From Verrucomicrobiota bacterium (GTDB taxonomy: Bacteria > Auribacterota > JABMQX01 > JAFGEW01), in the NCBI GenBank assembly GCA_016931415.1, contig JAFGEW010000099.1, forward strand, positions 18,522 through 82,521: DNA of 64,000 bases, given 5' to 3'. Position 1 is the first letter of the stretch. Each line of letters opens with the position of its first letter. The notes beneath the pieces were generated by a model that searched no databases, had not been told where the DNA came from, and was given only the letters and a program-made list of their open reading frames with translations. Made by a program: the position numbers and the translations under genes. Positions 31,133 through 62,248 of this stretch are shown in pieces.

Positions 31133-31156
31133 ACACCGCGATTCGAGGAGAAAGCC

Positions 31157-44606: not shown

Positions 44607-44612
44607 GCCTGG

Positions 44613-46034: not shown

Positions 46035-47136
46035 CGATGAGCAGGCAGAGCGCCAGAGCGAAGAGCACGTGGAACCGGGCCGCGCCCGTGACCTGCTCGG
46101 CCTCGCCCATGTCGCCGGCGATCGTCGCCGTCATCGTGCGCACCGGCTGCGTTAGGTCATACCACGGACTGGGGATCCTGGCGGCGTTGCCCGACGCCAT
46201 CCAGACCACCATCGTCTCGCCAAGCGCACGCATCACGCCGAGAATGACGGCGGCGAGAATCCCACTGCGTGCCGCTGGGATAACGACCTTGGTGAGCGTC
46301 TCGGCACGAGTCGCACCCAGGGCATAGCTGCCTTCGCGAAGCTCGCGACCGACCGCCTGCAGGGCGTCTTCGGACACGCTTACAATCGTGGGCAGTGCCA
46401 TGATGCCGAGGATGATCGATACGTTGAGGGCGTTTGTGCCGCTCGGGATCTCCAGCCGGCCACATGCTCCGGCGACTTCCAGCAATCCATACACACCGGC
46501 GGCACCCAAAGCAACGGCTGCCACGAGGCGCACCGGCAGACGTACACGTTCCGGCCAGCGCACGGCGAACAGGTCGCTCACCACCAGCACGACGAGCGCG
46601 AGCATCGGCAGACCGATGGCCCACGCAGCCACCGTCAGCAGATGCCCGCCCTTTTCCTGAAGCAGGGGAGCAAAGACGACGAGGGCGAAGAAACCGTAGG
46701 CGACCGATGGAATGGCCGCCAGCACCTCGATGATCGGCTTGACGATCTGGCGGAGTGCGAACGGCAGCACGTCGCTCAGACAGAGCGAGGCCGCCAACCC
46801 AAGCGGCACGGCCACAACGATGGCGCCGAGCGTCACGATCCCGCTGCCGACGAACAGCGCGAGCGCGCCGAACTCCGGGGGGGGAGCCGACGGATACCAC
46901 CGTGTGCTGCCGAAGAACTCGGCGATACCCCGCAGCCGGAAGAACGGGAGCGCGTCCTTGAGGATGAACGCGACGATGAACAGCACGGCGATGGCAGAGC
47001 TTGCCGTCACGGCAAACAGCACGCCCCTCGTGGCAAGAGCGGCGAGCCGTTTGGCTCGGCTCGCCCGCTCACTCAACGAAAGGCTGCGTCGGCCGGGACG
47101 TGCTTCCTCGTCGTGCGTGGTGCCGATTCGAGCCAA
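45964..47136 (-). CDS. pstC: phosphate ABC transporter permease PstC
   Basis: Six TM helices. The EAA loop reads LREGSYALGATRAETLTKVVIPAARSGIL. It lies between pstS and pstA. Confidence 0.8.
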   Translation of the reverse strand: MARIGTTHDEEARPGRRSLSLSERASRAKRLAALATRGVLFAVTASSAIAVLFIVAFILKDALPFFRLRGIAEFFGSTRWYPSAPPPEFGALALFVGSGIVTLGAIVVAVPLGLAASLCLSDVLPFALRQIVKPIIEVLAAIPSVAYGFFALVVFAPLLQEKGGHLLTVAAWAIGLPMLALVVLVVSDLFAVRWPERVRLPVRLVAAVALGAAGVYGLLEVAGACGRLEIPSGTNALNVSIILGIMALPTIVSVSEDALQAVGRELREGSYALGATRAETLTKVVIPAARSGILAAVILGVMRALGETMVVWMASGNAARIPSPWYDLTQPVRTMTATIAGDMGEAEQVTGAARFHVLFALALCLLIVALLANLASEWIVRRAQAKLRGR

Positions 47137-47138
47137 GA

Positions 47139-47996
47139 CTACTCCTTCGTTGGCCCTGTGGTGTAGTCGGTCACCGGCACAAATCCGAGCGTCTCGACAA
47201 TCTCTTGCCCATGGCGAGACAGGTAGAGCGTAACGAACGCGTGGAGATGCGTGCCCATGCTCGGATAGCCGTTGGTGAACATGAACAGGGGCCGTGCGAT
47301 CGGGTAGATGCCCGACTTGACCGTCTCCGGGCTCGGGGCGATGCCGTTGATCGTGAGCCCTTTGACCTTGCGATCGAGGAAGCCGAGCCCCACGTAACCG
47401 ATGGCCGTGGCTGTCGTCGAAACCTTCTTGTGTACGGCGCCGTTGCTGCCGTAGTACTCGGTCGCGGACGCCATTTTCCCCTTGTTCATCACGAGCGACT
47501 CGAACGTCTCGTATGTCCCACTATTGGTGTCACGGCTGCACACCACGATGGCCTTGTCTGGCCCACCAAGCTCCTTCCAGTTCGTGATGGTCCCTGTGTA
47601 GATGCCGCGCACCTGCTCGACCGTGAGGCCATTGACCGGATTGCTCGGGTGCACGATGACGGCGATCCCGTCGAGCGCCACAACGTGAGCAACCGGGGTG
47701 ATCCCCTTCTCGATGGCCGCTTTGACCTCCTCATCCTTCATGAACCGCGACATGTCGGCCACGTCGCATGTGCCATTGACGAGGCTCTTGGCCCCGTTGC
47801 CGCTGCCCGATTCGCTCACCGTGATGTTCACGCCCGGGTTGCGCTCCATGTAGTACTCGGCAAACGCCTTGGCGATCGGTCCCACCGTCGTCGAGCCGTC
47901 CACGACGATGCTCGTGTCGCTGCCTGCCGCGCCCGCGGCGAGACCGAGTCCCGCAAGGAGGGCCAGCACGCTGATGCAGAGAGCAAACGCTTTCAT
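47139..47996 (-). CDS. pstS: phosphate ABC transporter substrate-binding protein PstS
   Basis: Signal peptide present. The PBP fold with Pi-binding residues is indicated by VDGSTTVGP..SGSGNGAK...TCDVADMSR. Confidence 0.85.
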   Translation of the reverse strand: MKAFALCISVLALLAGLGLAAGAAGSDTSIVVDGSTTVGPIAKAFAEYYMERNPGVNITVSESGSGNGAKSLVNGTCDVADMSRFMKDEEVKAAIEKGITPVAHVVALDGIAVIVHPSNPVNGLTVEQVRGIYTGTITNWKELGGPDKAIVVCSRDTNSGTYETFESLVMNKGKMASATEYYGSNGAVHKKVSTTATAIGYVGLGFLDRKVKGLTINGIAPSPETVKSGIYPIARPLFMFTNGYPSMGTHLHAFVTLYLSRHGQEIVETLGFVPVTDYTTGPTKE

Positions 47997-48048
47997 GTCG
48001 TCATCTCCTTGGCTTCAATGATACGTCCGCGTGTCAACCATGTTCCAG

Positions 48049-49254
48049 CTAGAAATCGATCTGGAAGCGCATCTGCACGATGTCGGCTTCCCCGACACCG
48101 CTCACGTCCGAGTTGACGTAGTTCAGCATGATGCGCGTGTTGGGGTTGAGGTACCAGTTCGCGCCGAGGGTGATATCGTCCATCTCACCGCCCTCGATCG
48201 TCCCGTCGGTCAGGTCGATGCTCGAGTAGCGGGCGGTGAGCTGCACTGCACCCATGCCGCCGTCCACCATGAGATTCCGATTTGGCCTGACGCGGTCGAA
48301 GGCGCCTTCCGAGAGCTTGTAGCGGCGGTGCTCGCCGGTCAGGAAATAGCTTGCCTCCACATAGTAGCCGGCGAAGTCCGGATCGCCCGATGCAGCCGAC
48401 TGCACCGCGGCCATGATGTACTCCCCTTGTACCGACAACGGGCCGAACACGGCCGCTGCCTCAACACCAATCAAGTCCACTTCCTCGGCCTCGAAGTCAC
48501 CGGTGTCGACGAACCGCGTCGACAAGTGCGCCTCAGGCCGGGCACGGTAGCGCACCTCATCGCCCGGCAGTTTCCTGTGGCTGTAGGCCGCGCCGAGATG
48601 GAGCAGTCTCTCGCCCTTGTCTTCGTAGAGGGGCACGCCTGTCACTCGTGCTGTCAGGTTGTAGTCACTGCCGCCCGCGAACTCGCCGAAGTCGTCGGTT
48701 TCACGGAAGATGCCGGCACCGTACGTGATGCGCTCGTTCATTGCATTGCCCAAGTAGCCGATGCCTACGTTCCGGCTGGGCGAGAAGGTATTGGCCAGCG
48801 AACCCTCCATCAGCGTGACGTACTTGCTGCTCGTGATCTCCTCAAGGCTGAACGGCTCCTTGAAGTGCCCAACGCGCACTGTTCCTGGCCCGACGTTCAG
48901 GATGCCGATGTACATGTCCTTCAACGCCGCCTCACCGCCGGCGAAGTCATACTGTGCCTTGAACTCGACCGAGTCGTAGATGGTCCCCGAGAAGTACAGG
49001 CGCGCCCGGCGGAACTCGATCGCCTCGTCAAGCGGGTCTTCCTCGTCGTCCAGCGCCGCATCCAAATCGAACCAAGCCATGTCGACCATGATCCGGCCCC
49101 CGACCTTGAGCTTGAACGCGCCGTCCTCCGAGTCGGCCCGCAGGCCTTCCTTCCAGTAGACGTTCAAGTCCTCGGCCAGCGCCTGACCTGCCACGACAGA
49201 AGCCGCCAGCAGGCCCAACAAAAACACTCGCATCCGGCTCCCGATTCCCTTCAT
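48049..49254 (-). CDS. oprP: phosphate-selective porin (OprO/OprP family)
   Basis: Start at ATG 49254 with a GGAGGAG RBS. Signal peptide present. Alternating amphipathic beta-strands are seen. The C-terminal residue is F (..RFQIDF). Confidence 0.7.
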   Translation of the reverse strand: MKGIGSRMRVFLLGLLAASVVAGQALAEDLNVYWKEGLRADSEDGAFKLKVGGRIMVDMAWFDLDAALDDEEDPLDEAIEFRRARLYFSGTIYDSVEFKAQYDFAGGEAALKDMYIGILNVGPGTVRVGHFKEPFSLEEITSSKYVTLMEGSLANTFSPSRNVGIGYLGNAMNERITYGAGIFRETDDFGEFAGGSDYNLTARVTGVPLYEDKGERLLHLGAAYSHRKLPGDEVRYRARPEAHLSTRFVDTGDFEAEEVDLIGVEAAAVFGPLSVQGEYIMAAVQSAASGDPDFAGYYVEASYFLTGEHRRYKLSEGAFDRVRPNRNLMVDGGMGAVQLTARYSSIDLTDGTIEGGEMDDITLGANWYLNPNTRIMLNYVNSDVSGVGEADIVQMRFQIDF

Positions 49255-49361
49255 TTTCTCCTCCTCAACAGGCGTTTGTGCGTTTTGCAGGAGCGGCTGG
49301 TGTCCACCCTGGGCACGGCATACTCCGCCCTCCATCTTGGCGGGGAACTTACAGCGGGCGT

Positions 49362-49389
49362 GTGAAGAGAAGATGAAGGCGGAATGAAG
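49362..49389 (-). promoter_or_regulatory. Pho-box-like PhoB binding site upstream of oprP (three CTTCAY direct repeats, 11-bp period)
   Basis: On the minus strand: CTTCATtccgcCTTCATcttctCTTCAC. The repeat starts are exactly 11 bp apart. It lies ~110-135 bp upstream of the oprP ATG. Confidence 0.45.
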
Positions 49390-49418
49390 GTTCTTCCGCG
49401 AGGGATCGTCTGCGCAGT

Positions 49419-51185
49419 CTACTGCGCCAGAGTGAAGCGGACACGGAACGTGCTGCCAAGCCCCGGCGCGCTCTCGACGGTGACACGGCCGCCGTGTGCC
49501 TCGGCGATGTGCTTGACGATGGAGAGCCCGAGCCCCGTGCCGCCTAGCTCGCGCGAACGGGCCTTGTCGACGCGGTAGAAGCGCTCGAAGATCCGCGCCT
49601 GATCGCGCGGCTCGATGCCGATGCCGGTGTCCGCCACCTCAAGCACCGCCTCATCGCCTTCGGCTGTCAGTCGCACCTCGACACGCCCGCCCTCGGGTGT
49701 GAACTTGATAGCGTTGTCCAGAAGGTTCTCGATCAGTTGCCGCACGGCGTTGGGTTCACAGAGCACGACGACGGGCCGATCCGGCAACGTCACCGCGAGC
49801 TTCACCTTCTTGTGCTCGGACAGCGCCCCGAACTGGTGGACCGCCTCATCGATCGGCTGCCGAACATCGCTTGGTTTCAGTTCGAGCGCGGTGTCCCGCG
49901 ACTCGACGCGCGACAGCACCAACAGATCGGCCGTGAGCGCTGCTAAGCGATGGGCCTGATCCTGCAGCTTCGTCAGGAAGCGGCGGCGCGTTGCGTCATC
50001 CATTGACTCATCGTCGAGCAGGGTCTCGACTAGGCCCTGGATTGCAGTCAGTGGCGTCTTGAGCTCATGCGAAACGTTCGCCACGAAGTCACGCCGAACC
50101 GTCTCGAGCTGCCGTAGACGTGTGACGTCATGGAGGACAACTACCGCGCCGCTCAATGCCCCCTCGGCGTCGCGCAGCGGCGCCGCCTGCATCTCGACGA
50201 CGCGGTCCGCAGTCAGCGTTGCCTCCGTCGTCACTCCAGCCGCCGTCTTGAGCGCCGCGGCGATGGTCTCGTTCACTCCAGGCAGACGCGTCACTTCCCA
50301 GACATGTCTGCCGGTACTCGCGTCCGGCGTCGTGCCGAGGATCTCACCCGCCGCGGCGTTCATATGGACGACGCGTTCGTGGCGGTCCACGGCCACAACG
50401 CCCTCGACCATGCTCGCCAGAATGGCCAACACTTCGTTGCGATCAGCCGTGATCCGCTCCATGCGCTCGCGCAACTGGCTCGACATGCGGTCGAGCGCCG
50501 CGGCGAGCTGGCCGATCTCGTCAGGCGTCTGAACATGCGCCCGTTGCGTGTAGTCACCGGCGGCGATCGCCTTGGCGACGCGCGTCATTGCGCGGAGGGG
50601 CTCGGTGACGCGCCTCGCGACGAACACACCAATCACGGCGGCGGCCCCGGCCCCGATGAGCCCGCCAAGCAACACGACGAGTCGCACGCGCCGCAGGCGC
50701 TCCTGGACGGCGGTCAACGGAAGCGAGGTGCGAACGAAGCCGTAGAGCACGTTGCCTTCTTCGACAGCCAGTGCCAGATACATCATGCGCGTGTGAAGCG
50801 TATCGCTGTAGCGCACGTGCAGGCCGACACCTTGCTGGCGCGCCGCCAGCACTTCCGCACGGCGGCCGTGGTTGTCCATCGTCCCTGGGTCCGACTCCGA
50901 GTCGGCTACCACTGCGCCGTTCTTGTCCATCACGGTGAGCCGCGTGTTGATCTGGCGCCCGAGTGTTGCCACACGGGCTTGCAGCGTCGGATCGCCACCT
51001 TTGGCGAACGCCTGCAAAGCCATGTCAGCAAGGAGCTCGGCCCGGCTGCGGAGCGCTTGCCCGGTCTCATGCAGCGCATCTGCCTCGATTCGCCGCGATA
51101 CAAGCACGCCCACGACGACGGCTGTCACGACGACAAGGGCGACAAGGCTGAAATAGACTCTGCAAAAGAAGCGCTTGCACAGCAC
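49419..51185 (-). CDS. phoR: phosphate regulon sensor histidine kinase PhoR (TM, HAMP, PAS, HisKA, HATPase_c)
   Basis: The H-box is FVANVSHELKTPL. N box reads DNAIKFT and G boxes read DTGIGI and GTGLGLSIVKHI. Located immediately downstream of phoB. Confidence 0.8.
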   Translation of the reverse strand: MLCKRFFCRVYFSLVALVVVTAVVVGVLVSRRIEADALHETGQALRSRAELLADMALQAFAKGGDPTLQARVATLGRQINTRLTVMDKNGAVVADSESDPGTMDNHGRRAEVLAARQQGVGLHVRYSDTLHTRMMYLALAVEEGNVLYGFVRTSLPLTAVQERLRRVRLVVLLGGLIGAGAAAVIGVFVARRVTEPLRAMTRVAKAIAAGDYTQRAHVQTPDEIGQLAAALDRMSSQLRERMERITADRNEVLAILASMVEGVVAVDRHERVVHMNAAAGEILGTTPDASTGRHVWEVTRLPGVNETIAAALKTAAGVTTEATLTADRVVEMQAAPLRDAEGALSGAVVVLHDVTRLRQLETVRRDFVANVSHELKTPLTAIQGLVETLLDDESMDDATRRRFLTKLQDQAHRLAALTADLLVLSRVESRDTALELKPSDVRQPIDEAVHQFGALSEHKKVKLAVTLPDRPVVVLCEPNAVRQLIENLLDNAIKFTPEGGRVEVRLTAEGDEAVLEVADTGIGIEPRDQARIFERFYRVDKARSRELGGTGLGLSIVKHIAEAHGGRVTVESAPGLGSTFRVRFTLAQ

Positions 51186-51188
51186 GGC

Positions 51189-51905
51189 TCAGCTCTCCAC
51201 ATCGCGGAACCGATACCCGACGCCGCGGATGGTCTCGATCACCTCGTGGTAATCGCCCAGTTTCTTGCGCACGGCGCGCACATGCACGTCGATGTTGCGG
51301 TCCACGACGACGGCATGCTCCCCGATCACCCGGTTCAGAAGCTGGTCACGCGTGAACACGCGCCCTGGGTGCGAGGCCAGAAAATGGAGCAGCCGAAACT
51401 CGGTGGCAGTGAGCGTCACAGGCGTGTCGTCAACACGAACCTCGAAGCGTACGGCGTCAATCATCACGCCGTCGCGCACGATGCGTTCGCCGCCGCCTGC
51501 CTCTTCCTTCAGCGGTCCGCGCCGCAGCACGGCTCGGACGCGCGCGACAAGCTCTTTGGGGCTGAACGGCTTGGTGACATAGTCATCGGCCCCCACGCCG
51601 AGACCGAGGACGATGTCGCTCTCTTCGCCCTTGGCCGTCACCATGATGATCGGGATCGCACGGGTTACCTGGTCGGCCTTGAGCTGTCGGCACAGCTCGA
51701 TGCCGTCGAGGCCCGGCAGCATCAGGTCGAGCAGCACGAGGTCGGGTGCCTCGTCCCGGACCAGGTTGAGGCCCTTGCGGCCGTCGCGCGCCGCGCTGAC
51801 GCGGTAGCCCTCCCGCGCGAGATTGTACTGCATGACCTCGAGGATGTCCTCTTCGTCCTCGATGATAGCGATCTTCGCCTGCGCCATACGCCGCCCCGTC
51901 TTCAT
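51189..51905 (-). CDS. phoB: phosphate regulon response regulator PhoB (OmpR/winged-helix family)
   Basis: Receiver motifs are IAIIEDEEDIL and LVLLDLMLPGLDG. The C-terminal trans_reg_C winged helix reads ..RLLHFLASHPGRVFTRDQLL..VDVHVRAVRKKL. The true start is probably ATG 51887. Confidence 0.85.
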   Translation of the reverse strand: MKTGRRMAQAKIAIIEDEEDILEVMQYNLAREGYRVSAARDGRKGLNLVRDEAPDLVLLDLMLPGLDGIELCRQLKADQVTRAIPIIMVTAKGEESDIVLGLGVGADDYVTKPFSPKELVARVRAVLRRGPLKEEAGGGERIVRDGVMIDAVRFEVRVDDTPVTLTATEFRLLHFLASHPGRVFTRDQLLNRVIGEHAVVVDRNIDVHVRAVRKKLGDYHEVIETIRGVGYRFRDVES

Positions 51906-51963
51906 CGCGTTTTCGGTCGCGTGCCCCTTGGGCCGTTCAGCGCGCTCTTGTACGCGACGCAGT

Positions 51964-51991
51964 ATGAAGGAAAAGCAAAGACGATGTGAAG
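51964..51991 (-). promoter_or_regulatory. Pho-box-like direct repeats upstream of phoB
   Basis: Minus strand reads CTTCACatcgtCTTTGCttttcCTTCAT. These are three 6-mers at 11-bp spacing, ~60-85 bp upstream of the phoB start. Confidence 0.4.
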
Positions 51992-52254
51992 CCTTTCTGG
52001 AGCAAGTGCAACAGACGCAGCTCTCATTCCCTCAAGCTTGGCCGGGAAGCGGCAGGCGCGTCGCGGGCAAACAGCGCAACTGCCCCGTTTTCGCGCTTGA
52101 TCTTGGCCGCGCCGCTCCATAGCATCTGGTCCGGGAGCGTTCCCATCGGGGGCGTTTCCGTTCACAGCGAGGGGCGCGCCGCTCGACGCCGACCCCGGGT
52201 TGTGTGGAGGAAAGGGAGTCAACGCATCCGTGCGGCGGAGGAGGGTCCGAGCGC

Positions 52255-53037
52255 ATGCAGCATCCTGACGCCTTGATGGCGATCCTCATGTTTGCCTTTG
52301 CCGCCGTCATCTTTCTCTTCATCTGGCGTGCCCGCCGCGGTCATCTCTCACGTGTGCGCAAGATCGGCGGCATCGCCGCGCTCGAGGAGGCCGTCGGACG
52401 CGCGACCGAGACCGGCCGGCCCGTCGTCTTCGCCATGGGCGGCTCGGACATCATGGACATCATGACGCACGCCTCGCTCGCCGTCATGTCGCACATTGCC
52501 CGGCTCGCCGCGCGAGTGCACACGCGCTTCGTCGCGCTGGTACGCATCCCCAACGTGTTTCCCGTCGCCGAGGAGTTCGTTCGCGAGGCCTACAAGGCCG
52601 AGGGCGTCCTTGAGGAGTTCGATGCTGAGGAGCAGGTCCGCTTCGTCACGGACAACGCGATGGTCTACGCCATGAGTGTCGCGCGCTACATCGAGGAACA
52701 CAAGGCCGGGTGCGCCGTCTTCCTGGGCGCCTTCGACTTCACCAGCCTCCTGATGACCGAGCCCGGTGCCCAGATGGGCGTGATCCAGATCGCCGGGGAC
52801 CCGTACCTGTGGCAGGTTCCGTTCTTCGTCTGCACGTGCGACTACACGATTATGGGCGAGGAGTACTTCGCCGCCGGCGCCTACGTCAGCCCCGACCCGA
52901 CGATGCGCGGCACGCTCGTGAGCCAGGACATCATCAAGGCCATCTTCGTTGGCCTCATCCTTCTTGGACTGCTCTGCTATCACCTCGATGTCAGCCCCGC
53001 GCGCTGGTTCGTCGAGCTGTTGCAGCACTACAAGTAG
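52255..53037 (+). CDS. hypothetical bitopic membrane protein (module A): N-term TM, ~200-aa soluble domain, C-term TM
   Basis: Start at ATG 52255. The soluble domain has a beta-alpha pattern (..GRPVVFAMGGSDIM..). It is paralogous to the gene at 53713. Confidence 0.5.
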   Translation: MQHPDALMAILMFAFAAVIFLFIWRARRGHLSRVRKIGGIAALEEAVGRATETGRPVVFAMGGSDIMDIMTHASLAVMSHIARLAARVHTRFVALVRIPNVFPVAEEFVREAYKAEGVLEEFDAEEQVRFVTDNAMVYAMSVARYIEEHKAGCAVFLGAFDFTSLLMTEPGAQMGVIQIAGDPYLWQVPFFVCTCDYTIMGEEYFAAGAYVSPDPTMRGTLVSQDIIKAIFVGLILLGLLCYHLDVSPARWFVELLQHYK

Positions 53038-53052
53038 ACAAGGAAGCAGCTT

Positions 53053-53709
53053 GTGGCAACACGCCGCCTCATCGTCAGGCTCCTCACGCTCGTGGGCGGG
53101 TTGTTCTTCATCGTCGAGTTCCTCATCCCGGGGTACCGACCCAACGGCGAGAATTTCCTTTCACCGCTGCGTGTCGGCGCGACGACGCTCCTCATGGTCG
53201 TCTCGGCCATGGCGTTCCTGCTCGGCCCGATCAGCCTCGTGCGCAGCCACCTCATGCGCCTCGTTCGGCGTCAGCCCGGCGTCTTCTACAGCCTCACGTT
53301 TCTCGTCTTCCTCGTCTTCGGCATCGTGGCCACTGCTGTCGAGAATGTTGCGAACCTCAAGTTCCTCTACAACGTCGCGTTCTACGGGTTCGGCCTCGCG
53401 CTCGGCGCCACGAGCATGGCGATCCTGGCCTTCTACCTTATGTCGGCCGCGTACCGTTCCTTCCGGCTCAACAACCTTGACTCCGGCGTCATGATGGGCG
53501 CCGCCGTCATCGTGCTCTTAGGTCTCGTGCCGCTCGGCGACTATCTGACCTACGCCCTGCCCGAATGGCTCCATCTCGGTTCCTGGGCGAGCTGGATCCT
53601 CGAAGTGCCCAACGTGGCCATCCAGCGCGCCGTGCTCATAGGCGCTGTCGCCGGCGCATTCGCCGCGGGCCTGCGGCAGTGGCTTGGACTCGGCAGGGTG
53701 GTGGGGTAG
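53053..53709 (+). CDS. hypothetical polytopic membrane protein (module B, ~6 TM)
   Basis: GTG start with an AGGAAG RBS. Highly hydrophobic 218 aa. Confidence 0.5.
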   Translation: MATRRLIVRLLTLVGGLFFIVEFLIPGYRPNGENFLSPLRVGATTLLMVVSAMAFLLGPISLVRSHLMRLVRRQPGVFYSLTFLVFLVFGIVATAVENVANLKFLYNVAFYGFGLALGATSMAILAFYLMSAAYRSFRLNNLDSGVMMGAAVIVLLGLVPLGDYLTYALPEWLHLGSWASWILEVPNVAIQRAVLIGAVAGAFAAGLRQWLGLGRVVG

Positions 53710-53712
53710 GCC

Positions 53713-54576
53713 ATGACCAGGTTCTTCGCCAGATTCCACAACCTCGACAGGCGCTGGCTCTACCTCGCCATGGTCGTTATTCTCTCGGTCCCGGTCATCA
53801 TTCAGATCCCACTGCCGCCCGGTGCAACGTCGCCGACGACCAAGGGCCTTTACGATCTCATTGAGTCGTGCCCCGAGGACAAGGTGATCCTGATCGATTC
53901 GAGCTGGGACGCCGGCTCGGCGGCCGAGAACCGCGCCCAGCTCGAATGCGTCATCCGCCACATCTGCCGCGAGAAGATCAAGTTCGTCGTCACCTCGGCC
54001 GGCATCACGGTCTTCGGGCCCGAGTTCGCCAACCAGATCATCGAGCCCATCGCGGCGGAAACCGGCTACGTCTACGGCGCCGACTGGGTCAGCCTCGGCT
54101 ACAAGGTCGCGCCGCAGGGCTCGATCAGCCTGCTCATCGACGGCATCTGCAAGGACCTGCACAGCGTCTACCCGGCCGACCACCGGGGCACGCCCGTGAG
54201 CGAGTTACCCCTTATGGACCGGGTGAGGACACACGAGGACTTCCACCTCGTCTACTGCGTTACCTATCAGCCCGACAATGCGTGGATCAGCTTCGTCAAG
54301 GGCCAGTTCGATGTCCCGGTCGCTTACGGTTGCATGACGATCTCGGCGCCCGGCTACTACCCGTTCATCGACAGCAGGCAACTCGCGGGCATGCTGATCG
54401 GCAACCGCGGCGCGGCCGAATACGAGGAACTCAACCACAAGCCCGGCCTCGGGCGGATCCTTATCATGGCCACCTCCTTCGGCAACCTCATGATCATCCT
54501 CGCCGCCGTCGTCGGCAACATGGGCTTCTACGCCGCGCGCGCGCTCGAGCGCAATGCACGCCGGAGGGCCGGCTAG
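53713..54576 (+). CDS. hypothetical bitopic membrane protein (module A', paralog of 52255..53037)
   Basis: N-terminal TM, Cys-containing soluble domain (..KVILIDSSWDAGSA..REKIKFVVTSAGI..), then a C-terminal TM. It aligns with module A. Confidence 0.5.
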   Translation: MTRFFARFHNLDRRWLYLAMVVILSVPVIIQIPLPPGATSPTTKGLYDLIESCPEDKVILIDSSWDAGSAAENRAQLECVIRHICREKIKFVVTSAGITVFGPEFANQIIEPIAAETGYVYGADWVSLGYKVAPQGSISLLIDGICKDLHSVYPADHRGTPVSELPLMDRVRTHEDFHLVYCVTYQPDNAWISFVKGQFDVPVAYGCMTISAPGYYPFIDSRQLAGMLIGNRGAAEYEELNHKPGLGRILIMATSFGNLMIILAAVVGNMGFYAARALERNARRRAG

Positions 54577-55257
54577 ATGAACGAACCTCTGACCATCTGG
54601 GTGGGCGCGATCGTCACGCTGGCTGTCTTCAGCTACCTGGTCAAGGAGAACGCGTTCTATCGCTTCTTTCTGCACGCGGCGCTCGGCACCACGGTCGGCA
54701 TGGGCATCGTCATGACGATCAAGCAGGTGCTGATCCCCAACTGGTATCAGCCGATCGCGAACGCAGTCACCGGTGATGGGCCGATGACCGGCCTGCTCTG
54801 GGTGCTGGCGCTTGTGCCCGGCTCGCTCTGGTACTTCCAGATGTCGAAGAAGCACTTCTGGGTCAGCACGCTCGTGAGCGGCCTGTTCATCGGCGTTGCC
54901 GCGGGCCTGGCCTTCAAGACGTGGATGCTGCTCATCATGCCGCAGATCGGCGCCTCGCTCAAACCGCTCAATCCGTTCGACGGCGGCTTCACGGGCGAGA
55001 AGCTCGCGGAGGTCGTGAGCAATTTCGTCTTCATCGCCTCGCTGCTGACCGCGTTGCTCTACTTTTTCTTCTCCTTCAGCACCGAGAGCAAGCTCATGGG
55101 CAAGCCGATGCGTTTCGGCCGCCTTATGATCATGGTCTGCCTCGGCGGCATGTTCGGAAGCACCGTCATGACCCGCCTCTCCTATCTCCTCGAGCGCCTC
55201 CGCTTCCTTTACCAGGACTGGATCGGCCGCCAGATCCTATCGCTCTTCGGCGGCTGA
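54577..55257 (+). CDS. hypothetical polytopic membrane protein (module B', ~6 TM)
   Basis: Its ATG overlaps the upstream stop (TAGATG). 226 aa, hydrophobic. Confidence 0.5.
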   Translation: MNEPLTIWVGAIVTLAVFSYLVKENAFYRFFLHAALGTTVGMGIVMTIKQVLIPNWYQPIANAVTGDGPMTGLLWVLALVPGSLWYFQMSKKHFWVSTLVSGLFIGVAAGLAFKTWMLLIMPQIGASLKPLNPFDGGFTGEKLAEVVSNFVFIASLLTALLYFFFSFSTESKLMGKPMRFGRLMIMVCLGGMFGSTVMTRLSYLLERLRFLYQDWIGRQILSLFGG

Positions 55258-55369: not shown

Positions 55370-56443
55370 ATGAAGACGAAGATGAAGGTCAAGTCAGCCC
55401 ACATGCTCAGGCTGCCGCCCGGATCGTTGACCGCGCCGCCGGGCGCCTACATGCCAAAGACGATCGAGGTGTTCCGCTATACGGCCGATTCCGTCGAAGA
55501 GAAAAGCCTCGCGCGAGTGGCCGACCTTGCTGCCTGCAAGGACAAGCCAGGCGTGCTCTGGGTCAACGTCGACGGTGTCGGCGACGTCGAGATCGTGCGC
55601 GAGATCGGCAACCTGTTCGGTCTCCATCCGCTCGCGCTCGAAGACGTGCTTCACGTGCGCCAACGCCCGAAGGTGGACGACTACGGCGACCACCTCTATG
55701 TCGTCGTGCGCATGCTGCACTTCACCGATGAGGTCGAATCGGAACAGGTCAGCATGTTCCTGACCCGCAGCGCCGTCATCACCTTCCAGGAGCATCCGGG
55801 CGACTCCTTCGACACCGTGCGCCAGCGGCTGCGCAAAGGCACCGGCCTGGTCCAGCGCCACGGCGCCGACTACCTCATGTACGCGCTCATGGACGCAATC
55901 ATCGACGACTACTACCCGTTCCTCGAAGGCATCGGCGAGCAGGTCGAGGCGCTCGAAGACCAGGTCGTCGCGCGCCCCTCGCGCACCACGCTCGGCCGCG
56001 TGCACGCAGTCAAACGCAATCTGCTCGACGTGCGGCGCGCGGTCTGGCCGCTGCGCGATGCCGTGAACAGCCTGCTCCGCGAGGACAACGCGCTCATCGC
56101 CAAGGCGACGCGCCTCTACCTGCGCGACTGCTACGACCACACCGTGCAAGTGCTCGATATCGTTGAGACCTACCGCGAATCCGCCGGCAACCTCATGGAC
56201 ATCTACCTCTCGAGCGCGAGTAACCGGATGAACGAGGTGATGAAAGTGCTCACCATCATCGCCACGATCTTTATCCCGCTGACGTTCCTCGCGGGCGTCT
56301 ACGGCATGAACTTCAGGTACATGCCGGAACTCGGGCTCTCCTGGACCTATCCAGCCCTCTGGGCGGTCATGGTGGCCATCGCCGTCACCATGCTCGTCCT
56401 GTTCTGGCGCAAAGGCTGGATCGGCCGGGGACGAGGCGAGTAA
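55370..56443 (+). CDS. corA: magnesium/cobalt transporter CorA
   Basis: The GMN motif is AGVYGMNFRYMPEL. Two C-terminal TM helices follow, and a KGWIG tail is present. Start assigned to the MKTKM ATG. Confidence 0.85.
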   Translation: MKTKMKVKSAHMLRLPPGSLTAPPGAYMPKTIEVFRYTADSVEEKSLARVADLAACKDKPGVLWVNVDGVGDVEIVREIGNLFGLHPLALEDVLHVRQRPKVDDYGDHLYVVVRMLHFTDEVESEQVSMFLTRSAVITFQEHPGDSFDTVRQRLRKGTGLVQRHGADYLMYALMDAIIDDYYPFLEGIGEQVEALEDQVVARPSRTTLGRVHAVKRNLLDVRRAVWPLRDAVNSLLREDNALIAKATRLYLRDCYDHTVQVLDIVETYRESAGNLMDIYLSSASNRMNEVMKVLTIIATIFIPLTFLAGVYGMNFRYMPELGLSWTYPALWAVMVAIAVTMLVLFWRKGWIGRGRGE

Positions 56444-56466
56444 GACGGAGCGCAGGACGAACTGCA

Positions 56467-58353
56467 GTGCGGTTCGGCCGGGCGCTCCAGGAGGTCCCGT
56501 TGGCCTGTGTGCAGACAACTGGCCGCCGATTCGTCGGGCTATGGTATGCCGTCCGGCTCGTGGCCGGGGTGGGATGGCGTTCCCGTCTCACGCGGGCCGT
56601 CATTTTGCTGGGCATCCCCCTCGTGCTGCTGGTGTATGCCGCCGCCTGGGGCGCGGAGTCTGACCGTTACCGCGTATCCTTCGAGGGGATCCCCGACAAG
56701 TCGTTGCGTCGGGCGTTGGAGGCCGCCTCCGATTGTGTTCAACTCCGCAAACGCGCGCCCGTCGCGCCCCGCGCACTGCGCCTGCGCGCCGAGCGCGATC
56801 GTGTCGGGCTGCTGCAGGTCATGCAGGCGAACGGCTACTACGACGCGACGATCACCTTCGATCTTGATGTGGACGCGACGCCCGTCCGCCTCGTCTTCCA
56901 CGTCGAGGCGCGATTGCCCTGCCTCCTGGCGGCCGTTGCTATCCACGGCCCGGACGGACAGCCGGTCGGGCCGGGCAGTCTCTCCGATATCGGCCTCGCT
57001 CTGGGCGAGCGCGCCACGGCTGGCGGCGTCATCGCCTCGCAACGCAGACTGCTCGAGTGGTTCGGTCGGCGCGGCTATCCGTTCCCTGAAGTGACCGATC
57101 GGCGCGTCGTCGTTGATCGCGCCGCGCACACGATGGCCGTAACGTTCGTCGTCGACCCCGGCCCGACGGCCACTTTCGGCACGTTGACGATCACGGGCCT
57201 TGTCCACGTCGACGAGCGCGTCGTGCGCATGGAACTCCCCTGGCGCACGGGCGACGCGTTCAACGGGGACCTGCTTGGCCAGTTCCGGGCGCGGCTGGTC
57301 GCTACCGGCCAGTTCTCCCTCATCCAGGTTTCCACGAGCGAAGCGGTGGACGAGCGCGGCCAGGTGGGCGTCCAGGTTCGTCTCGCTGAGCGCAAGCCGC
57401 GGACGGCCGCCGTCGGGCTAAGCTACAGGACCGACGAGGGGTTCGGCACTACGCTCTCGTGGCAGCATCGCAACCTGCTGGGTCACGCCGAGCGGTTCAG
57501 CTTCTCGGCTGCATTCTCCGGGATCGTCAGCGCCCTTGATGCCGAGTTCCGCAAGCCGCACTTCCGCGGGCGCAGGAAGACGCTGATTCTCGACGTGCGC
57601 GTGGCCGAAGAGAAACCCGATGCCTACACGAGCCGCAGCGTCGGTGCCTCGGCTCTCGTTAAGCGTCATCTCACGCCCAGCCTCGACGTGGGTGCGGGCC
57701 TCGCCTACAAGTACAGCGAAGTCACACAAGGCGGAGAGAAGAACGTATTCAGCCTGATCTCCGTGCCGGGGACGCTCGACTGGGACACGAGCGATGACTG
57801 GCTCTCGCCGAGCCGGGGTGGGCGGCTTGGCGCGCAGATCACCCCGTTCTACGATGTGCGCTCCCCCGGCTTCGGCTTCGTGAAGGGCCGCCTTCAGTAC
57901 TCGCGCTACGTCCCGCTCTCTCGCGGACCGAACCTCGTGCTCGCCGGACGTGTCGCGCTGGGCTCGATCGTGGGCGCGGAACACGACAGCATCCCGGCCG
58001 ACGAGCGGTTCTATGCCGGGGGCGGGGGCTCGATCCGCGGCTATGCCTACCAGACCGTGTCGCCCCTCGATGGGACAGACCCCATCGGTGGCAAGTCGCT
58101 GTTCGAGCTGTCGCTCGAGTTGCGCATTCAGCTTTCAGACGCGGTTGGCCTCGTGCCCTTCATCGACGGAGGGAACGCGTTCGTCGACTCGGCGCCCGAT
58201 CCCGGCGGCGATTTGCTCTGGGGCGCCGGGATCGGCCTGCGCTACGCGACGCCGATCGGTCCGATCCGTTTCGATGTCGGGTTCCCGCTCGACAGGCGCG
58301 ACGGGATGGACGACAGCTTCCAGATCTACGTGAGCCTTGGGCAATCGTTCTGA
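56467..58353 (+). CDS. tamA: Omp85-family outer-membrane protein (TamA/BamA-like; POTRA domains + beta-barrel)
   Basis: Signal peptide present. A C-terminal 16-strand barrel is indicated by GxxxRGY and aromatic-rich strands. It ends ..YVSLGQSF, with a terminal F. It sits adjacent to tamB. Confidence 0.7.
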   Translation: MRFGRALQEVPLACVQTTGRRFVGLWYAVRLVAGVGWRSRLTRAVILLGIPLVLLVYAAAWGAESDRYRVSFEGIPDKSLRRALEAASDCVQLRKRAPVAPRALRLRAERDRVGLLQVMQANGYYDATITFDLDVDATPVRLVFHVEARLPCLLAAVAIHGPDGQPVGPGSLSDIGLALGERATAGGVIASQRRLLEWFGRRGYPFPEVTDRRVVVDRAAHTMAVTFVVDPGPTATFGTLTITGLVHVDERVVRMELPWRTGDAFNGDLLGQFRARLVATGQFSLIQVSTSEAVDERGQVGVQVRLAERKPRTAAVGLSYRTDEGFGTTLSWQHRNLLGHAERFSFSAAFSGIVSALDAEFRKPHFRGRRKTLILDVRVAEEKPDAYTSRSVGASALVKRHLTPSLDVGAGLAYKYSEVTQGGEKNVFSLISVPGTLDWDTSDDWLSPSRGGRLGAQITPFYDVRSPGFGFVKGRLQYSRYVPLSRGPNLVLAGRVALGSIVGAEHDSIPADERFYAGGGGSIRGYAYQTVSPLDGTDPIGGKSLFELSLELRIQLSDAVGLVPFIDGGNAFVDSAPDPGGDLLWGAGIGLRYATPIGPIRFDVGFPLDRRDGMDDSFQIYVSLGQSF

Positions 58354-58357
58354 AGCC

Positions 58358-61300
58358 ATGATCAAGACGCAACACAGGATTCGGCGGTGGATCAAGAGGG
58401 TGGCGGTCGCCCTCGGCATCGTCGTGTTGCTCGTTGCCGTGCTGTTCCTTGTCGTCCAGACACCCTGGGCCAAGCGGCGCATTGCCTCGGCCGTGGAGCG
58501 CGCCCTGGGTGACCTGACCGGCTCGCAAGTCCGGATCAAGTCGCTCCGTGGGACCGTGCCGTACTCGATCAGGTTGAACGACGTGAGCTTCACGGATGAG
58601 AAGGGAACCTGGCTTCACGTCGCGGACCTCGGTGTTCGGTGGGCGCCGCTCGCGCTTGTTCGCGGGCGCATCCACATCTACGAGGTCACGAGTTCGGCCG
58701 TCACCCTCGAGCGCGTCCCGCCGATGCCCCCGAGACCGCCGCAACCGCCGCAGCCTTGGCGTGAGCAGATCCCCTCGCTTGTCGTTGAGCGTCTCGCGAT
58801 CGACGACCTCACGCTTGGTCCCGCGCTCGTCGGGAAGCGCGAGCACTTCCGAGTCGCGGGTGTCGTGTCGGCCGGGCGTCCGTTCGAATCCGCCTCAACG
58901 ACCTGGCGTGTTGAGCGCACGGACGACCCGAGCGCCCGCGCGGATGTCTCCGCCGCGCTAAGCGGCGAGTCGCCCTCGCTCTCGCTCGACCTTGTCGTCA
59001 ACGAGCCTGACGGTGCCGTGCTCCGCCGTCTTGCCGGGCTGCGCGACGCCGGCGCCGTAACCGTCTCGCTCCACGGTGAGGGACTGCTCACGGCGTGGAA
59101 CGCGACGCTGGACGCAACGGCGGCAGGTCTCGGAGAGGCAATCGCCCAGCTCGAAGTTGAGCTTGGGCCCGGCTCGATCGATCTGAAGCAGTCGAACCCG
59201 CGGGTGCGCGGCAGCGTACGTGCCAACACGCGCTTCAAGGACCAGGCAGTGCACGCGACGTCCACCTTCGCACTCGACGGCGGCCGTGTCGCTCTTTCCT
59301 CCATCGCCGTCGAGGGCGCCGGTAACCGGATCACCGGCGATCTCGCCCTCGACCTGGCGAGCGGCCTTCTCGATGGCGAGTTGGACGGCGCCGCCGTGAG
59401 TCTGGACTGCCTGACATCGATCTGGACCGAGCCGTTGAGCGGCAGCGCCACGTTGCACGCAACCCTGAGCCGCGCAGACAACGTTCAGACGGTCGATCTC
59501 GATGCCCATGTGCGCAGCTTCGACGGCCGGTTCGGACAGTGCAAGGACGCCACGATCCAGGCGCAGTTGACCGGTCCCTTCAACGCACCCCACGGCACGG
59601 CCCGGCTGCGCGCGAGCGGCTATGTACTCGACGACCTCGAGATCGCCACGCTCGAGATCGAGACAGAAGGCGATCGCCATTCGTTGACTGTTACGGCGCG
59701 CTCGACGGGCAACTACCGCGACCCGTTCAGCGTCGACACGACCGCCCTCGTGCGCGTCGGCGGCGTGATCGAGCTGCGCGCGCTGGAAGGCGTCTACGCG
59801 GCAGTCCCCGTACGCCTCGAGCGCCCCGCAACGATCGTGATCGCACCGAACAAGGTCGCCGTAAGCGAGTTGGAGCTTGGTGTCGGCGACGGCCGCGTCG
59901 GCGTTTCGGGCACCCTCATCGGCGAGGAACTCTCCGGGCTGATCGAAGTCTCGCGGCTTCCGCTTCAGCTCCTGCGGCCCGTGGGCATGCCGGACGTCGA
60001 TGGGCTCGCCTCTGGCCGCGTCCAACTCGCCGGCTCAGCGGCCGCAGCGCGCATCGAGGCCGCCGTCGCGGTCGAGGACCTGAGATGGCTCGACCCGGTA
60101 TATGCCGGGCTTCCGCACGCGGTGTTGTCGGCCAACGCGCAGTTCGACGCCGGGCAACTGAACGGCACGCTGTCGCTCGATCAGAGCGGGGGAGACGGCA
60201 CCTTGACGACGACCTTCCGTGTCCCGATGGCGCTCTCGCTCTCGCCCGCTGCGCTCTCGCTGTCGCGCGACGAGCCGCTCGAGGTCACGCTGACCGGTGG
60301 TGTGCCGATCGCCCCGTTCAGCGCGCTTGTCCTGCCCGAAGGGCGTGAAGCGGAAGGCCGTCTCACCGCCACATTCGACCTCGGCGGCACCATCGACTCG
60401 CCCGAACTGAGCGGGCGAGTCGCCCTCGACGCCGGTGTGCATACGGACGCCGCCCCCGCGACGAGCGTTTCCGCTCTTGCTGCGGCCGTTGAGGTCGAGC
60501 TCAAGCAAGGCGTGCTCTCAGTGACGCAGCTTTCCGCCAAGTCGGGCAGCACCGAGATCGCCGGCCATGCCACGGTACACCTTGCCCCTCGACCGTGGAG
60601 TGTGACGCCGAGCGGCCCGTTCGATGGCGCGCTCACCGTGCAGGCCGATCTCGCCGCCCTCGGCGCGCTCATGCTCCCCGAGGGTGAACAGGTCGAAGGC
60701 CGCGTGCTGCTCAGCGTCAGCGGGTCCGGCACGACCGACGCGCCCGTGTTCGATGGCTCCTGCCGCCTCGAAGCCGTCTCGTACAACATGAAGGGCACGG
60801 GCAGCCTTGTGAAGGATCTCGACGCGGGCGCTGTGTTCGCGCTGCGCGACGGCACGCTCACCATCGCCGACTTCTCGGCCACGAGCGCATCGGGCTCGGC
60901 GTCCGGCAACGTCAGGATCGGCGCCAGGCCGTGGCCGTGGCAGCTCGCGCCCCAACGTCTGCTCGAGGGCAAGCTCCTCGCCGACGTGCGCCTCCACGAG
61001 GCGCTGAGCACGCTGCTCTCCGACGACCAGCGGCTGGCCGGCCGCTTCGAGGCCGATCTCGTCGTCACCGGCACGAGCGATCAGCCGGCTGTCAGCGGCT
61101 GGCTGCGTGTGAGGGACGGCGCGTTCGACAACCTGCGTACGGGCACCACGCTGCGCGACATCACCGCCGACGTCAAGGCGAGTGGGTCCGAACTCACGCT
61201 CACGCACCTCGAGGCGAGCGACGGACACGAGGGCACGATCACCGGCAGCGGTCGGCTCGACGTCGACGCCGGCAAGCAGTTCCCGTTTGAGCTCGCTGTG

Positions 61301-62248
61301 GTGCTCACCGACGCCGCGGTTGTCAACGCCGATTACATCACCGGCTCCGTCGGCGGCAACGTGACGCTCTCCGGGTCCGTGGAACGGATGAGGCTTGCAG
61401 GCGAGGTCACGACCGGTTCGGTCGACGTGCAGTTGCCCGAGCGCGTCGTGCCGGCGCTCGCGGAACTGAACGTCATCGAGATCAACGCGCCTGGCGGTGC
61501 CGCACCGCCGCAGCCGTTGCGCCCGCCGACGCAGCCCATCGGTCTGGATCTCGACGTGCGGCTGCCGAAGCGCGTATTCGTCCGCGGCCACGGCCTGGAT
61601 TCGGAATGGGAAGGCAGAATCAGCATCACCGGTGACTCTGAGAATCCCATCATCACAGGGAGGCTGATGCTCACGCGTGGTCGCTTCGATCTCATTGACC
61701 GGAGTTTTGTACTGACCGAAGGCTCGATCTTCTTCAGCGGCGAGTCGCCGCCCGTGCCCGTGCTTACCATCAGGGCCGAGACTGCTGCGGGCGGCATGAC
61801 GGCCGTTATCATGCTCTCCGGCCCGGTGACAGCTCCGACGCTCACGCTCAGCTCGGTTCCTGCGCTGCCCTCCGACGAGGTGCTGGCTCGCGTATTCTTC
61901 GGCAACAGCGTGACCAGCCTCACGCCGTACCAGGCGCTGCGCCTCGCCCAGATTGCCGATGCACTCGCCCGCGGCGGCGACGGCTTCTCCCTTCTCGGTC
62001 GCGCCCGCGCGATCATGAAGGTGGACCGCCTCGAACTGACCGAGGGCGACGCATCGGGCAACGGCGCGTCCATCAGCGCGGGCAAGTACCTCAGCGACGA
62101 TCTCTACATCGAAGTGAAGAAGGGCGTCTCGGACAGCGCAACGTCTGTTTCCATCGAAAAACAGGTCAACCGGCATCTCTCCGTCGAAAGCGACATCGGC
62201 ACCAACCGCGCACCCGGCATCGGCCTCAAACTGCGTTGGGACTACTGA
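58358..62248 (+). CDS. tamB: translocation and assembly module protein TamB (N-terminal anchor, long beta-rich repeat region, C-terminal DUF490)
   Basis: 1297 aa. An N-terminal TM anchor is present. The DUF490-like C-terminus reads ..GRFDLIDRSFVLTEGSIFFSG..LTLSSVPALPSDEVLARVFFG..LKLRWDY. Confidence 0.7.
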   Translation: MIKTQHRIRRWIKRVAVALGIVVLLVAVLFLVVQTPWAKRRIASAVERALGDLTGSQVRIKSLRGTVPYSIRLNDVSFTDEKGTWLHVADLGVRWAPLALVRGRIHIYEVTSSAVTLERVPPMPPRPPQPPQPWREQIPSLVVERLAIDDLTLGPALVGKREHFRVAGVVSAGRPFESASTTWRVERTDDPSARADVSAALSGESPSLSLDLVVNEPDGAVLRRLAGLRDAGAVTVSLHGEGLLTAWNATLDATAAGLGEAIAQLEVELGPGSIDLKQSNPRVRGSVRANTRFKDQAVHATSTFALDGGRVALSSIAVEGAGNRITGDLALDLASGLLDGELDGAAVSLDCLTSIWTEPLSGSATLHATLSRADNVQTVDLDAHVRSFDGRFGQCKDATIQAQLTGPFNAPHGTARLRASGYVLDDLEIATLEIETEGDRHSLTVTARSTGNYRDPFSVDTTALVRVGGVIELRALEGVYAAVPVRLERPATIVIAPNKVAVSELELGVGDGRVGVSGTLIGEELSGLIEVSRLPLQLLRPVGMPDVDGLASGRVQLAGSAAAARIEAAVAVEDLRWLDPVYAGLPHAVLSANAQFDAGQLNGTLSLDQSGGDGTLTTTFRVPMALSLSPAALSLSRDEPLEVTLTGGVPIAPFSALVLPEGREAEGRLTATFDLGGTIDSPELSGRVALDAGVHTDAAPATSVSALAAAVEVELKQGVLSVTQLSAKSGSTEIAGHATVHLAPRPWSVTPSGPFDGALTVQADLAALGALMLPEGEQVEGRVLLSVSGSGTTDAPVFDGSCRLEAVSYNMKGTGSLVKDLDAGAVFALRDGTLTIADFSATSASGSASGNVRIGARPWPWQLAPQRLLEGKLLADVRLHEALSTLLSDDQRLAGRFEADLVVTGTSDQPAVSGWLRVRDGAFDNLRTGTTLRDITADVKASGSELTLTHLEASDGHEGTITGSGRLDVDAGKQFPFELAVVLTDAAVVNADYITGSVGGNVTLSGSVERMRLAGEVTTGSVDVQLPERVVPALAELNVIEINAPGGAAPPQPLRPPTQPIGLDLDVRLPKRVFVRGHGLDSEWEGRISITGDSENPIITGRLMLTRGRFDLIDRSFVLTEGSIFFSGESPPVPVLTIRAETAAGGMTAVIMLSGPVTAPTLTLSSVPALPSDEVLARVFFGNSVTSLTPYQALRLAQIADALARGGDGFSLLGRARAIMKVDRLELTEGDASGNGASISAGKYLSDDLYIEVKKGVSDSATSVSIEKQVNRHLSVESDIGTNRAPGIGLKLRWDY

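Follow-up and report, generated by a model that had tools for sequence, protein, structure and literature searches.

A conserved four-gene operon of uncharacterised membrane proteins in a Verrucomicrobiota bacterium: a possible core of an ATP-coupled transmembrane machine

We have analysed a stretch of 64,000 nucleotides (nt), here called the window, from a Verrucomicrobiota bacterium (GTDB lineage Bacteria; Auribacterota; JABMQX01; JAFGEW01). It covers positions 18,522 to 82,521 of the forward strand of contig JAFGEW010000099.1 in the NCBI GenBank assembly GCA_016931415.1. The subject of this work is a run of four genes at positions 52255-55257 of the window, which we call A, B, A2 and B2. 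An earlier reading of the bare sequence (the original prediction) had described these genes as an operon of membrane proteins built as a duplicated two-gene module and had considered a role connected with phosphate or cations. Our results support the operon, place it in a gene system found in several bacterial phyla and tentatively suggest that it encodes the membrane core of an ATP-coupled machine.

Results

Organization of the operon

All four genes are on the plus strand. Gene A (52255..53037, ATG start) encodes a protein of 260 amino acids (aa) with the Pfam domain DUF6754, and gene B (53053..53709, GTG start) encodes a protein of 218 aa with six transmembrane (TM) helices and without known family. 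They are followed by gene A2 (53713..54576, 287 aa, ATG start), whose product has no Pfam family, and gene B2 (54577..55257, 226 aa, ATG start), which encodes a protein with 5-6 TM helices, again without known family. The intergenic gaps are 15, 3 and 0 nt. Specifically, the TAG stop codon of A (53035-53037) is separated by 15 nt from the GTG of B at 53053, and this gap holds a Shine-Dalgarno sequence, AAGGAAG (53040-53046), ahead of gene B. The TAG of B (53707-53709) is followed after 3 nt by the ATG of A2 at 53713, while the TAG of A2 (54574-54576) directly abuts the ATG of B2 (54577-54579). Thus the 15-nt and 3-nt gaps are as originally described, but the TAGATG read earlier as an overlap consists of abutting codons.

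Homologues begin with MxHAD, which favours the ATG at 52255 as the start of gene A and speaks against the GTG further upstream at 52204. Many long antisense open reading frames (ORFs) occur in the same region and are spurious. The four ORFs discussed here are real genes and not ORFs driven by GC content, since all four proteins are conserved across phyla. Four same-strand ORFs are found where the original prediction had placed them and their order is kept in several phyla, which supports a real, translationally packed operon of uncharacterised membrane proteins.

Conserved gene order and partner genes

Loci for comparison were collected by scanning 185,579 species genomes with a profile and by looking up individual homologues; they are referred to by L numbers. 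According to tblastn and ORF clustering, the order A-B-A2-B2 and its tight spacing are kept in at least 20 loci. These span Planctomycetota (including Phycisphaerae and Brocadiae), Sumerlaeota, Verrucomicrobiota, Bdellovibrionota and Chloroflexota; the loci compared also include one from a proteobacterial metagenome-assembled genome (MAG). All-against-all clustering of the ORFs of 22 loci left only A, B, A2, B2 and three further genes, up, MutL and X375, as common to many loci, and beyond these seven genes no neighbour recurs across many of the 22. Some neighbour families are common only to groups of three loci, for example the closely related L019-L021.

The full system has the order up-A-B-A2-B2, where up encodes a protein of ~100 aa, plus genes for an ATPase of ~600 aa and for X375. 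The ATPase (MutL) has the actin fold (ASKHA) and belongs to the GlmL/MutL family (PF13941, E = 1e-127); with the NCBIfam model accessory_GlmL it scores 229 bits, below the equivalog cut-off of 475. X375 is a cytoplasmic protein of ~375 aa with at least 7993 relatives. It has an N-terminal barrel-sandwich-hybrid domain, recognised through weak matches to RnfC_N in 7/9 members (best E = 2e-5) and to NQRA_N in 3/9 (E = 1e-3), and a KOW-like C-terminus. MutL and X375, together with up, adjoin the cluster in about 15 loci, where the MutL/X375 pair is found downstream, upstream or in divergent orientation. These three arrangements point to a functional link rather than to an inherited gene order.

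Two paralogous up-A-B-A2-B2 clusters lie back to back in L005 (2055-13017), and L006 has the same genes, partly inverted. In both loci the two membrane modules stand beside a single GlmL-like ATPase/X375 pair.

Several loci carry further genes next to the cluster. A flavoprotein disulfide reductase resembling dihydrolipoamide dehydrogenase (Pyr_redox_2 + Pyr_redox_dim) is encoded downstream in L008 (7052-8425), L020 (10060-11466) and L021 (17584-18990). A ~180-aa membrane protein and a regulator with AAA_22 and Trans_reg_C domains are encoded after the cluster in L022 and L023, and in L023 a PspA/IM30 gene comes after these two. The E3-like reductase (three loci) and PspA (one Chloroflexi locus) were considered as functional clues and set aside as too sporadic.

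The DUF6754 protein encoded by gene A

The product of gene A matches Pfam PF20539 (DUF6754) with 230 bits against a cut-off of 27 (E = 3e-68), and the match extends over profile positions 12-249 of 257. The same domain is present in all 120 gene A homologues among the matches listed. The original prediction could not name a family for any of the four proteins; this needs correction for A, which belongs to the uncharacterised DUF6754, and stands for B, A2 and B2, which have no match.

Identity of A across phyla is about 56-61%. The invariant or near-invariant residues are E44, E45, R49, E52, H72, C153, E169-P-G, Q178, D182, C193, C195, E202, E203, Q224, D225 and K228. Such conservation together with invariant charged, cysteine and histidine residues would be expected of a catalytic or docking core. 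Conserved cysteines and histidines had been noticed earlier in both soluble domains. In A this is true for His72, Cys153, Cys193 and Cys195, each of which is at least 90% conserved in the family, and in A2 for His83 (again at least 90%), but the cysteines of A2 fall short. A B12-binding domain, marked by a DxHxxG...SxL...GG motif on a flavodoxin-like fold, was considered for A and rejected, the canonical DxHxxG motif being absent from the A consensus by inspection.

Long DUF6754 paralogues with a signal peptide are encoded in L026 (11128-12954), L027 (11125-12549) and L028 (1171-3033). They share a conserved, beta-sandwich-like segment (DRPSDDG...VEWP) before the TM helix, and the two longest, those of L026 and L028, have a helical, coiled-coil-like stretch at the same side of the helix. 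Pfam covers nothing in these N-terminal extensions. Upstream of the long paralogues there is a gene for a two-TM protein of 146-148 aa with a weak match to bacterial PH domains. Another protein (P0035, 417 aa) runs straight from the DUF6754 domain into the last 180 residues of B2 and has no B or A2 in between; the junction is probably a deletion or an assembly artefact. The variant locus L024 (6980-9716) is limited to DUF6754, a membrane protein of 249 aa and an A2 homologue, with no adjacent B2 or ATPase gene.

Architecture of the four proteins

According to hydropathy, A and A2 begin and end with a TM helix, and B and B2 contain about six such helices. Protein A consists of a TM helix (residues ~6-27), a Rossmann-like alpha/beta domain (~38-211) and a C-terminal TM helix (~215-244). 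In A2 the corresponding elements are at ~13-29, ~41-241 and ~246-270 and are followed by an arginine-rich tail. AlphaFold models of both proteins have high predicted local distance difference test (pLDDT) values, 92.9 for A and 94.5 for A2. Hydropathy and AlphaFold thus agree with the earlier description of genes 1 and 3 as a TM helix, a beta-alpha domain of ~190-210 aa and a second TM helix. Likewise, hydropathy and the charge pattern described below bear out genes 2 and 4 as encoding proteins with about six TM helices (218 and 226 aa). Gene B has the conserved motif FYLxSAAxRAFRxxN, and B2 has FSYxxKDNxxYR, GxAAGL, PQ...LKPLNP, LYFF and FGxTVMxR.

B, A2 and B2 have no match in Pfam, NCBIfam or PADLOC and no relative in the PDB, even when family profiles are used. 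Curated transporter families (ABC, MFS, TRAP, PTS and others) were not found for these three proteins in the Pfam, NCBIfam and PDB profile searches, and none of the seven system proteins matches an anti-phage defence hidden Markov model (HMM) of PADLOC. In total, searches of Pfam, NCBIfam, PADLOC and the PDB with the four proteins and the accessory proteins returned only DUF6754 and MutL. For the four proteins, the Pfam, NCBIfam and PDB searches gave no clear HMM match to a characterised transporter or complex, a result that the original prediction had named as evidence against it. A similarity of B2 to UppP/BacA (E = 0.0046, 16.7 bits against a cut-off of 217) was rejected as due to chance, because it is seen in only one of 16 family members, the B2 of the window. 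Foldseek with the AlphaFold models of A and A2 gave no match at E <= 1e-3, and TM-scores were 0.35 or lower. As judged from the models, the fold class of A and A2 is clear, yet it points to no ligand or activity.

A2 belongs to a large family, with 5312 representative clusters matching its profile at E <= 1e-3. A2 proteins of the Chloroflexota type are 450-1200 aa long (L022 11293-14308, L023 8452-11497, P0248, P0261, P0318 and others) and have an N-terminal double zinc ribbon, which is the only fused part added by the long A2 relatives. The A2 of L023 has long acidic ELPSWLDEL repeats ahead of the TM helix. Inside the window the A2 HMM also matches an ORF at 31133-32149 on the plus strand. 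This ORF carries an Oxidored_q6 domain ([NiFe]-hydrogenase small subunit/NuoB, E = 4.5e-23), and we dismissed the match as a weak, generic flavodoxin-like resemblance.

Membrane topology

Topology was assigned from the number of lysine and arginine residues around each TM helix, averaged over families. The A family has 0.12 such residues before the first TM helix and 4.33 after it, which predicts that the N-terminus is outside and the domain cytoplasmic. The A2 family shows the reverse, with 3.2 before the first helix, 1.05 after it and 4.05 after the last one, predicting both termini to be inside and the domain periplasmic. In the B family the charges alternate cleanly over six helices, with N- and C-termini inside. 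The B2 family has the N-terminus outside as judged from the first five helices, and the sixth helix is ambiguous.

Fused domains give the same answer. The long A paralogues have a signal peptide and an extension of 200-350 aa before the first TM helix; the extension is taken as periplasmic, in agreement with an outside N-terminus of A. Many A2 relatives have the double zinc ribbon, a cytoplasmic module, N-terminal to the first TM helix, in agreement with an inside N-terminus of A2. Together these data predict opposite orientations for the A/B and A2/B2 modules, which would be mirror images across the membrane. The prediction draws on three independent lines: charge bias, signal peptide with extension in A, and zinc ribbon in A2. 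The opposite predicted orientation of the two modules was missing from the original account of the operon.

Similarity between the two modules

Genes 1 and 3, as well as genes 2 and 4, had been proposed to be duplicates. The like architecture, on which this claim was partly built, is confirmed, but sequence methods give no significant match between A and A2 or between B and B2. BLASTP gives E = 2.1 for A/A2 and E = 1.7 for B/B2. With diverse family alignments, hhalign aligns A and A2 over 67 columns (P = 0.016), pairing beta1-alphaA-beta2 of both models. When AlphaFold secondary structure is added, the alignment is collinear over 213 columns with P = 0.02-0.03 and a probability of 2-6%. Overall the hhalign values for A/A2 (P = 0.016-0.034, probability 6% or less) are not significant, and B/B2 aligns over only 17 columns (P = 0.08). 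The A/A2 alignment quoted in the original prediction covers the same segment as the best local hhalign match and shares its lack of significance. With larger A and A2 alignments only a match between TM helix plus arginines is left.

HMM comparisons have the same outcome. The family HMMs do not cross-match at E <= 10. A2 has no match to Pfam DUF6754 at E <= 1 nor to our own A HMM at E <= 10, and cross-family scores lie less than 1 bit above those of the controls, which were reversed or shuffled. There is no DUF6754 protein among the top 150 matches of a deep A2 profile search. On the other side, the AlphaFold models of A and A2 both show a TM helix, a helix, six beta-alpha units and a TM helix at nearly identical residue numbers. 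We conclude that the resemblance of A and A2 is real in architecture, while common descent is unproven.

The copy in the window

Planctomycetal genomes often have two paralogous clusters, one of each of two types. Type 1 clusters follow the ATPase and X375 genes and have a long A of 474-620 aa (L026-L028 and the first copy of L005 and L006). Type 2 clusters have a short A, 63-67% identical to that of the window, compared with 37-39% for type 1. In other genomes the short-A paralogue coexists with an ATPase-linked copy. The cluster in the window is shown by these comparisons to be the short-A paralogue of the membrane core of the conserved system. HMMs of up, MutL and X375 find no match in the six-frame translation of the 64-kb window, which in this respect resembles L001, L009, L010 and L012, loci that carry the core by itself. 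Two MAGs, HQ560 and FJ291, have type-2 A/A2 and X375 at distant locus tags. Sharing of one energiser between membrane modules would explain why the window has neither ATPase nor X375.

Phosphate regulon and corA neighbours

The neighbours named earlier, phoB, phoR and corA, agree with our gene calls. A complete string of Pho genes (phoB, phoR, an OprO/P-type phosphate porin, pstS, two pst permease genes and pstB) occupies 43779-51905 on the minus strand, and 349 nt (51906..52254) are common to gene A and the divergent phoB. On the other side, corA, a TamA-like Omp85/POTRA gene and a TamB-family gene (1303 aa) are located at 55370-62248 on the plus strand.

The Pho-box-like repeats of the original prediction are found as a triple repeat, TTCAY-N6-TTCAY-N6-TTCAY, at 51964-51990. 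It lies upstream of phoB, on the minus strand, and coincides in part with the -35 element of a sigma70-like promoter of that strand. With up to two mismatches, the 64 kb contain only two such sites, both with 11-bp phasing, and the second (49362-49388, minus strand) is directly upstream of the phosphate porin gene. The chance expectation is 0.21 sites, and two sites were reached in 4/100 shuffles. Judged by sequence, the triple repeat is a credible candidate for a local Pho box of this lineage. The E. coli-type box (CTGTCAT-N4-CTGTCAT) is absent from the window. The repeat at 51964-51990 is 265 nt from the ATG of gene A, and both its orientation and its placement suit the minus-strand phoB promoter. 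The intergenic region 51906..52254 contains no plus-strand promoter-like site and no Rfam element, and neither riboswitch nor RNA leader was found in the window or in eight loci.

In 23 other loci (343 kb) the surroundings of the cluster contain no homologue of PhoR, PstS, OprP, CorA, TamA or TamB. The association with phoBR and corA is therefore not conserved; the link of the four genes to them is positional only, and that they stand beside phosphate regulator genes seems to be coincidental in this genome.

Discussion

Proposed function and alternative explanations

Based on the results obtained, we favour, with somewhat less than even confidence, an explanation in which the four genes encode the core of an ATP-coupled transmembrane machine that forms a complex and is served in trans by the ATPase/X375 pair. 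The four proteins would form a single hetero-oligomeric complex in the inner membrane, with B and B2 as its transmembrane body, A capping the cytoplasmic face and A2 the periplasmic face. The ATPase/X375 pair, presumably encoded elsewhere in the genome, may dock on the conserved cytoplasmic domain of A. An ATP-driven conformational change could then be passed across the membrane to bring about substrate translocation or a process in the periplasm or envelope. Two membrane modules beside one ATPase pair in L005 and L006 fit a shared energiser.

Several points weigh against this proposal. The window, L001, L009, L010, L012 and L024 have no adjacent ATPase gene, and the core might work alone. There is no X375 from this MAG among the best 120 X375 matches. 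We infer complex formation, ATPase docking and transport solely from gene linkage; no experimental study exists for any subunit, and the literature searched makes no mention of DUF6754 or PF13941 and has nothing relevant on GlmL. Characterised relatives of GlmL are regarded as chaperones that reactivate the cofactor of soluble B12 enzymes and not as transport motors, and no transporter is known to be energised by a GlmL-like ATPase.

The high conservation of A, with its clustered invariant Glu, Asp, Cys and His, could also mean that the four genes encode a membrane-anchored enzyme complex. Cytoplasmic DUF6754 would be the catalytic part, acting for example in the chemistry of lipid-linked or envelope polymers, and the GlmL-like ATPase would be its chaperone or reactivase, the part it is believed to play for B12 mutases. 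GlmL relatives are accessory factors of enzymes according to their NCBIfam names, and the disulfide reductase downstream in three loci would suit such a complex. However, neither the structure nor the sequence of A specifically matches an enzyme, the B12-binding motif is missing, conserved metabolic neighbours were not found, and an enzyme would leave the matching periplasmic domain and the two polytopic partners without reason; we regard this explanation as unlikely. A redox- or ion-coupled pump analogous to Rnf/Nqr is suggested by the opposite predicted orientation and RnfA/RnfE-like size of B and B2 and by the RnfC_N and NQRA_N matches of X375. Against it, no core protein matches Pfam Rnf-Nqr, FMN_bind, Fer4 or NQR2, conserved cysteines are missing from the TM helices of B and B2, the barrel-sandwich is a generic fold and the partner is an ATPase rather than an oxidoreductase, which makes such a pump very unlikely. 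A phosphate- or cation-related role was raised as a possibility in the original prediction; it would be a PhoB-regulated membrane function that shares the phoB promoter region and is linked to corA. It draws on the divergence of the operon from phoB-phoR-oprP-pstSCAB, on the adjoining corA and on the repeat that the common intergenic region shares with the upstream region of the porin gene. Against it stand the adjacency, which is unique to this genome when compared with 23 other loci, the repeat, which suits the phoB side and lies 265 nt from the ATG of gene A, the missing E. coli-type box and the conserved partners of the system, a GlmL/MutL-type ATPase and X375. We consider a phosphate or cation role to be highly improbable.

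The origin of the two modules is an evolutionary question, and an answer to it is compatible with the ATP-coupled machine that we favour. An ancient tandem duplication of a module made of a bitopic Rossmann-domain protein and a 6-TM protein, with one copy flipped, would give a pseudo-two-fold complex. The secondary-structure orders of A and A2 in the models are nearly superimposable (TM-H-(E-H)x6-TM), the best A/A2 alignment is collinear and pairs the first beta-alpha-beta unit of both proteins, B and B2 are alike in size and number of TM helices, and the modules are predicted to be oppositely oriented. Sequence comparisons nevertheless fall short of significance, the weak signal is lost with larger alignments and beta-alpha repeats resemble each other by convergence, so a flipped duplication is doubtful. 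If the duplicate module were flipped, pseudo-symmetric with like alpha/beta domains on both faces and powered by an actin-fold ATPase, the system could be a new primary transporter or trans-envelope motor, a bold suggestion to which we give little credit. A GlmL-like engine would there stand in place of an ABC, P-type or rotary ATPase, and the operon would be one half of the machine; this part is equally speculative.

We rate the system as lying outside the known kinds, its function being read only from gene context and predicted structure. It occurs widely in Planctomycetota, in Chloroflexota and in further phyla with mostly uncultured members, and despite thousands of clusters only one component, the ATPase, belongs to a family with any characterised member. 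If the ATPase is indeed coupled to the membrane core, an actin-fold ATPase would join the few engines that power processes across the inner membrane of bacteria, and GlmL-type proteins would act beyond B12 enzymology. The predicted mirror arrangement is unusual in design: domains of like shape would face both sides of the membrane, and the two polytopic partners would be oppositely oriented. For annotation, the results provide three new protein families (B, A2 and B2) and a system-level context for DUF6754, and warn that no phosphate label should be carried over from the neighbouring genes.

Comparison with known systems

Two components of the system belong to catalogued families. Gene A encodes a full-length member of PF20539, which is itself a catalogue entry without function, structure or literature, and Pfam leaves B, A2, B2 and the seven-gene context uncovered. 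The cluster-linked ATPase is a clear member of PF13941, the GlmL/MutL family (TIGR01319), to which EutA and the diol-dehydratase reactivases are related. Compared with GlmL of glutamate mutase it is ~150 aa longer due to a C-terminal extension, and its gene, which is not encoded in the window, adjoins genes of membrane proteins instead of B12 mutase genes.

The likenesses to the following systems are best regarded as analogies, as their defining features, where tested, are lacking here. Rnf and Nqr complexes contain an inverted pair of 6-TM subunits (RnfA/RnfE or NqrD/NqrE), a bitopic RnfG/NqrC and RnfC/NqrA with a barrel-sandwich N-terminal domain. Similarly, the present system has two ~220-aa 6-TM subunits predicted to be oppositely oriented, bitopic subunits with soluble domains and, in other loci, the cytoplasmic partner X375 with an RnfC_N/NQRA_N-like domain. 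Unlike Rnf/Nqr, the core proteins match no Rnf/Nqr family including PF02508 (Pfam and NCBIfam, E <= 1), they have no FMN-binding or Fe-S motifs and no conserved cysteines in the membrane, and the partner is an ATPase and not an NADH or ferredoxin oxidoreductase.

In ABC-2 systems of the GldF/GldG type the auxiliary protein consists of a TM helix, a periplasmic alpha/beta domain and a second TM helix. A2 would have the same layout and stands beside a 6-TM partner in what may be an ATPase-dependent system. Unlike GldF/GldG, there is no ABC ATPase and no Pfam match to ABC2_membrane or ABC_transp_aux, and there is an extra cytoplasmic mirror subunit, A.

EmrE, Fluc and YdgE/YdgF are inverted-topology pairs or dual-topology proteins, in which the paralogues are clearly homologous and have no large soluble domains. 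As in these pairs, the two modules are encoded by neighbouring genes and have like architecture and opposite charge bias. The difference is that homology between A and A2 is not demonstrable and that each bitopic protein carries a domain of ~200 aa, the two domains being predicted to fold on opposite sides of the membrane.

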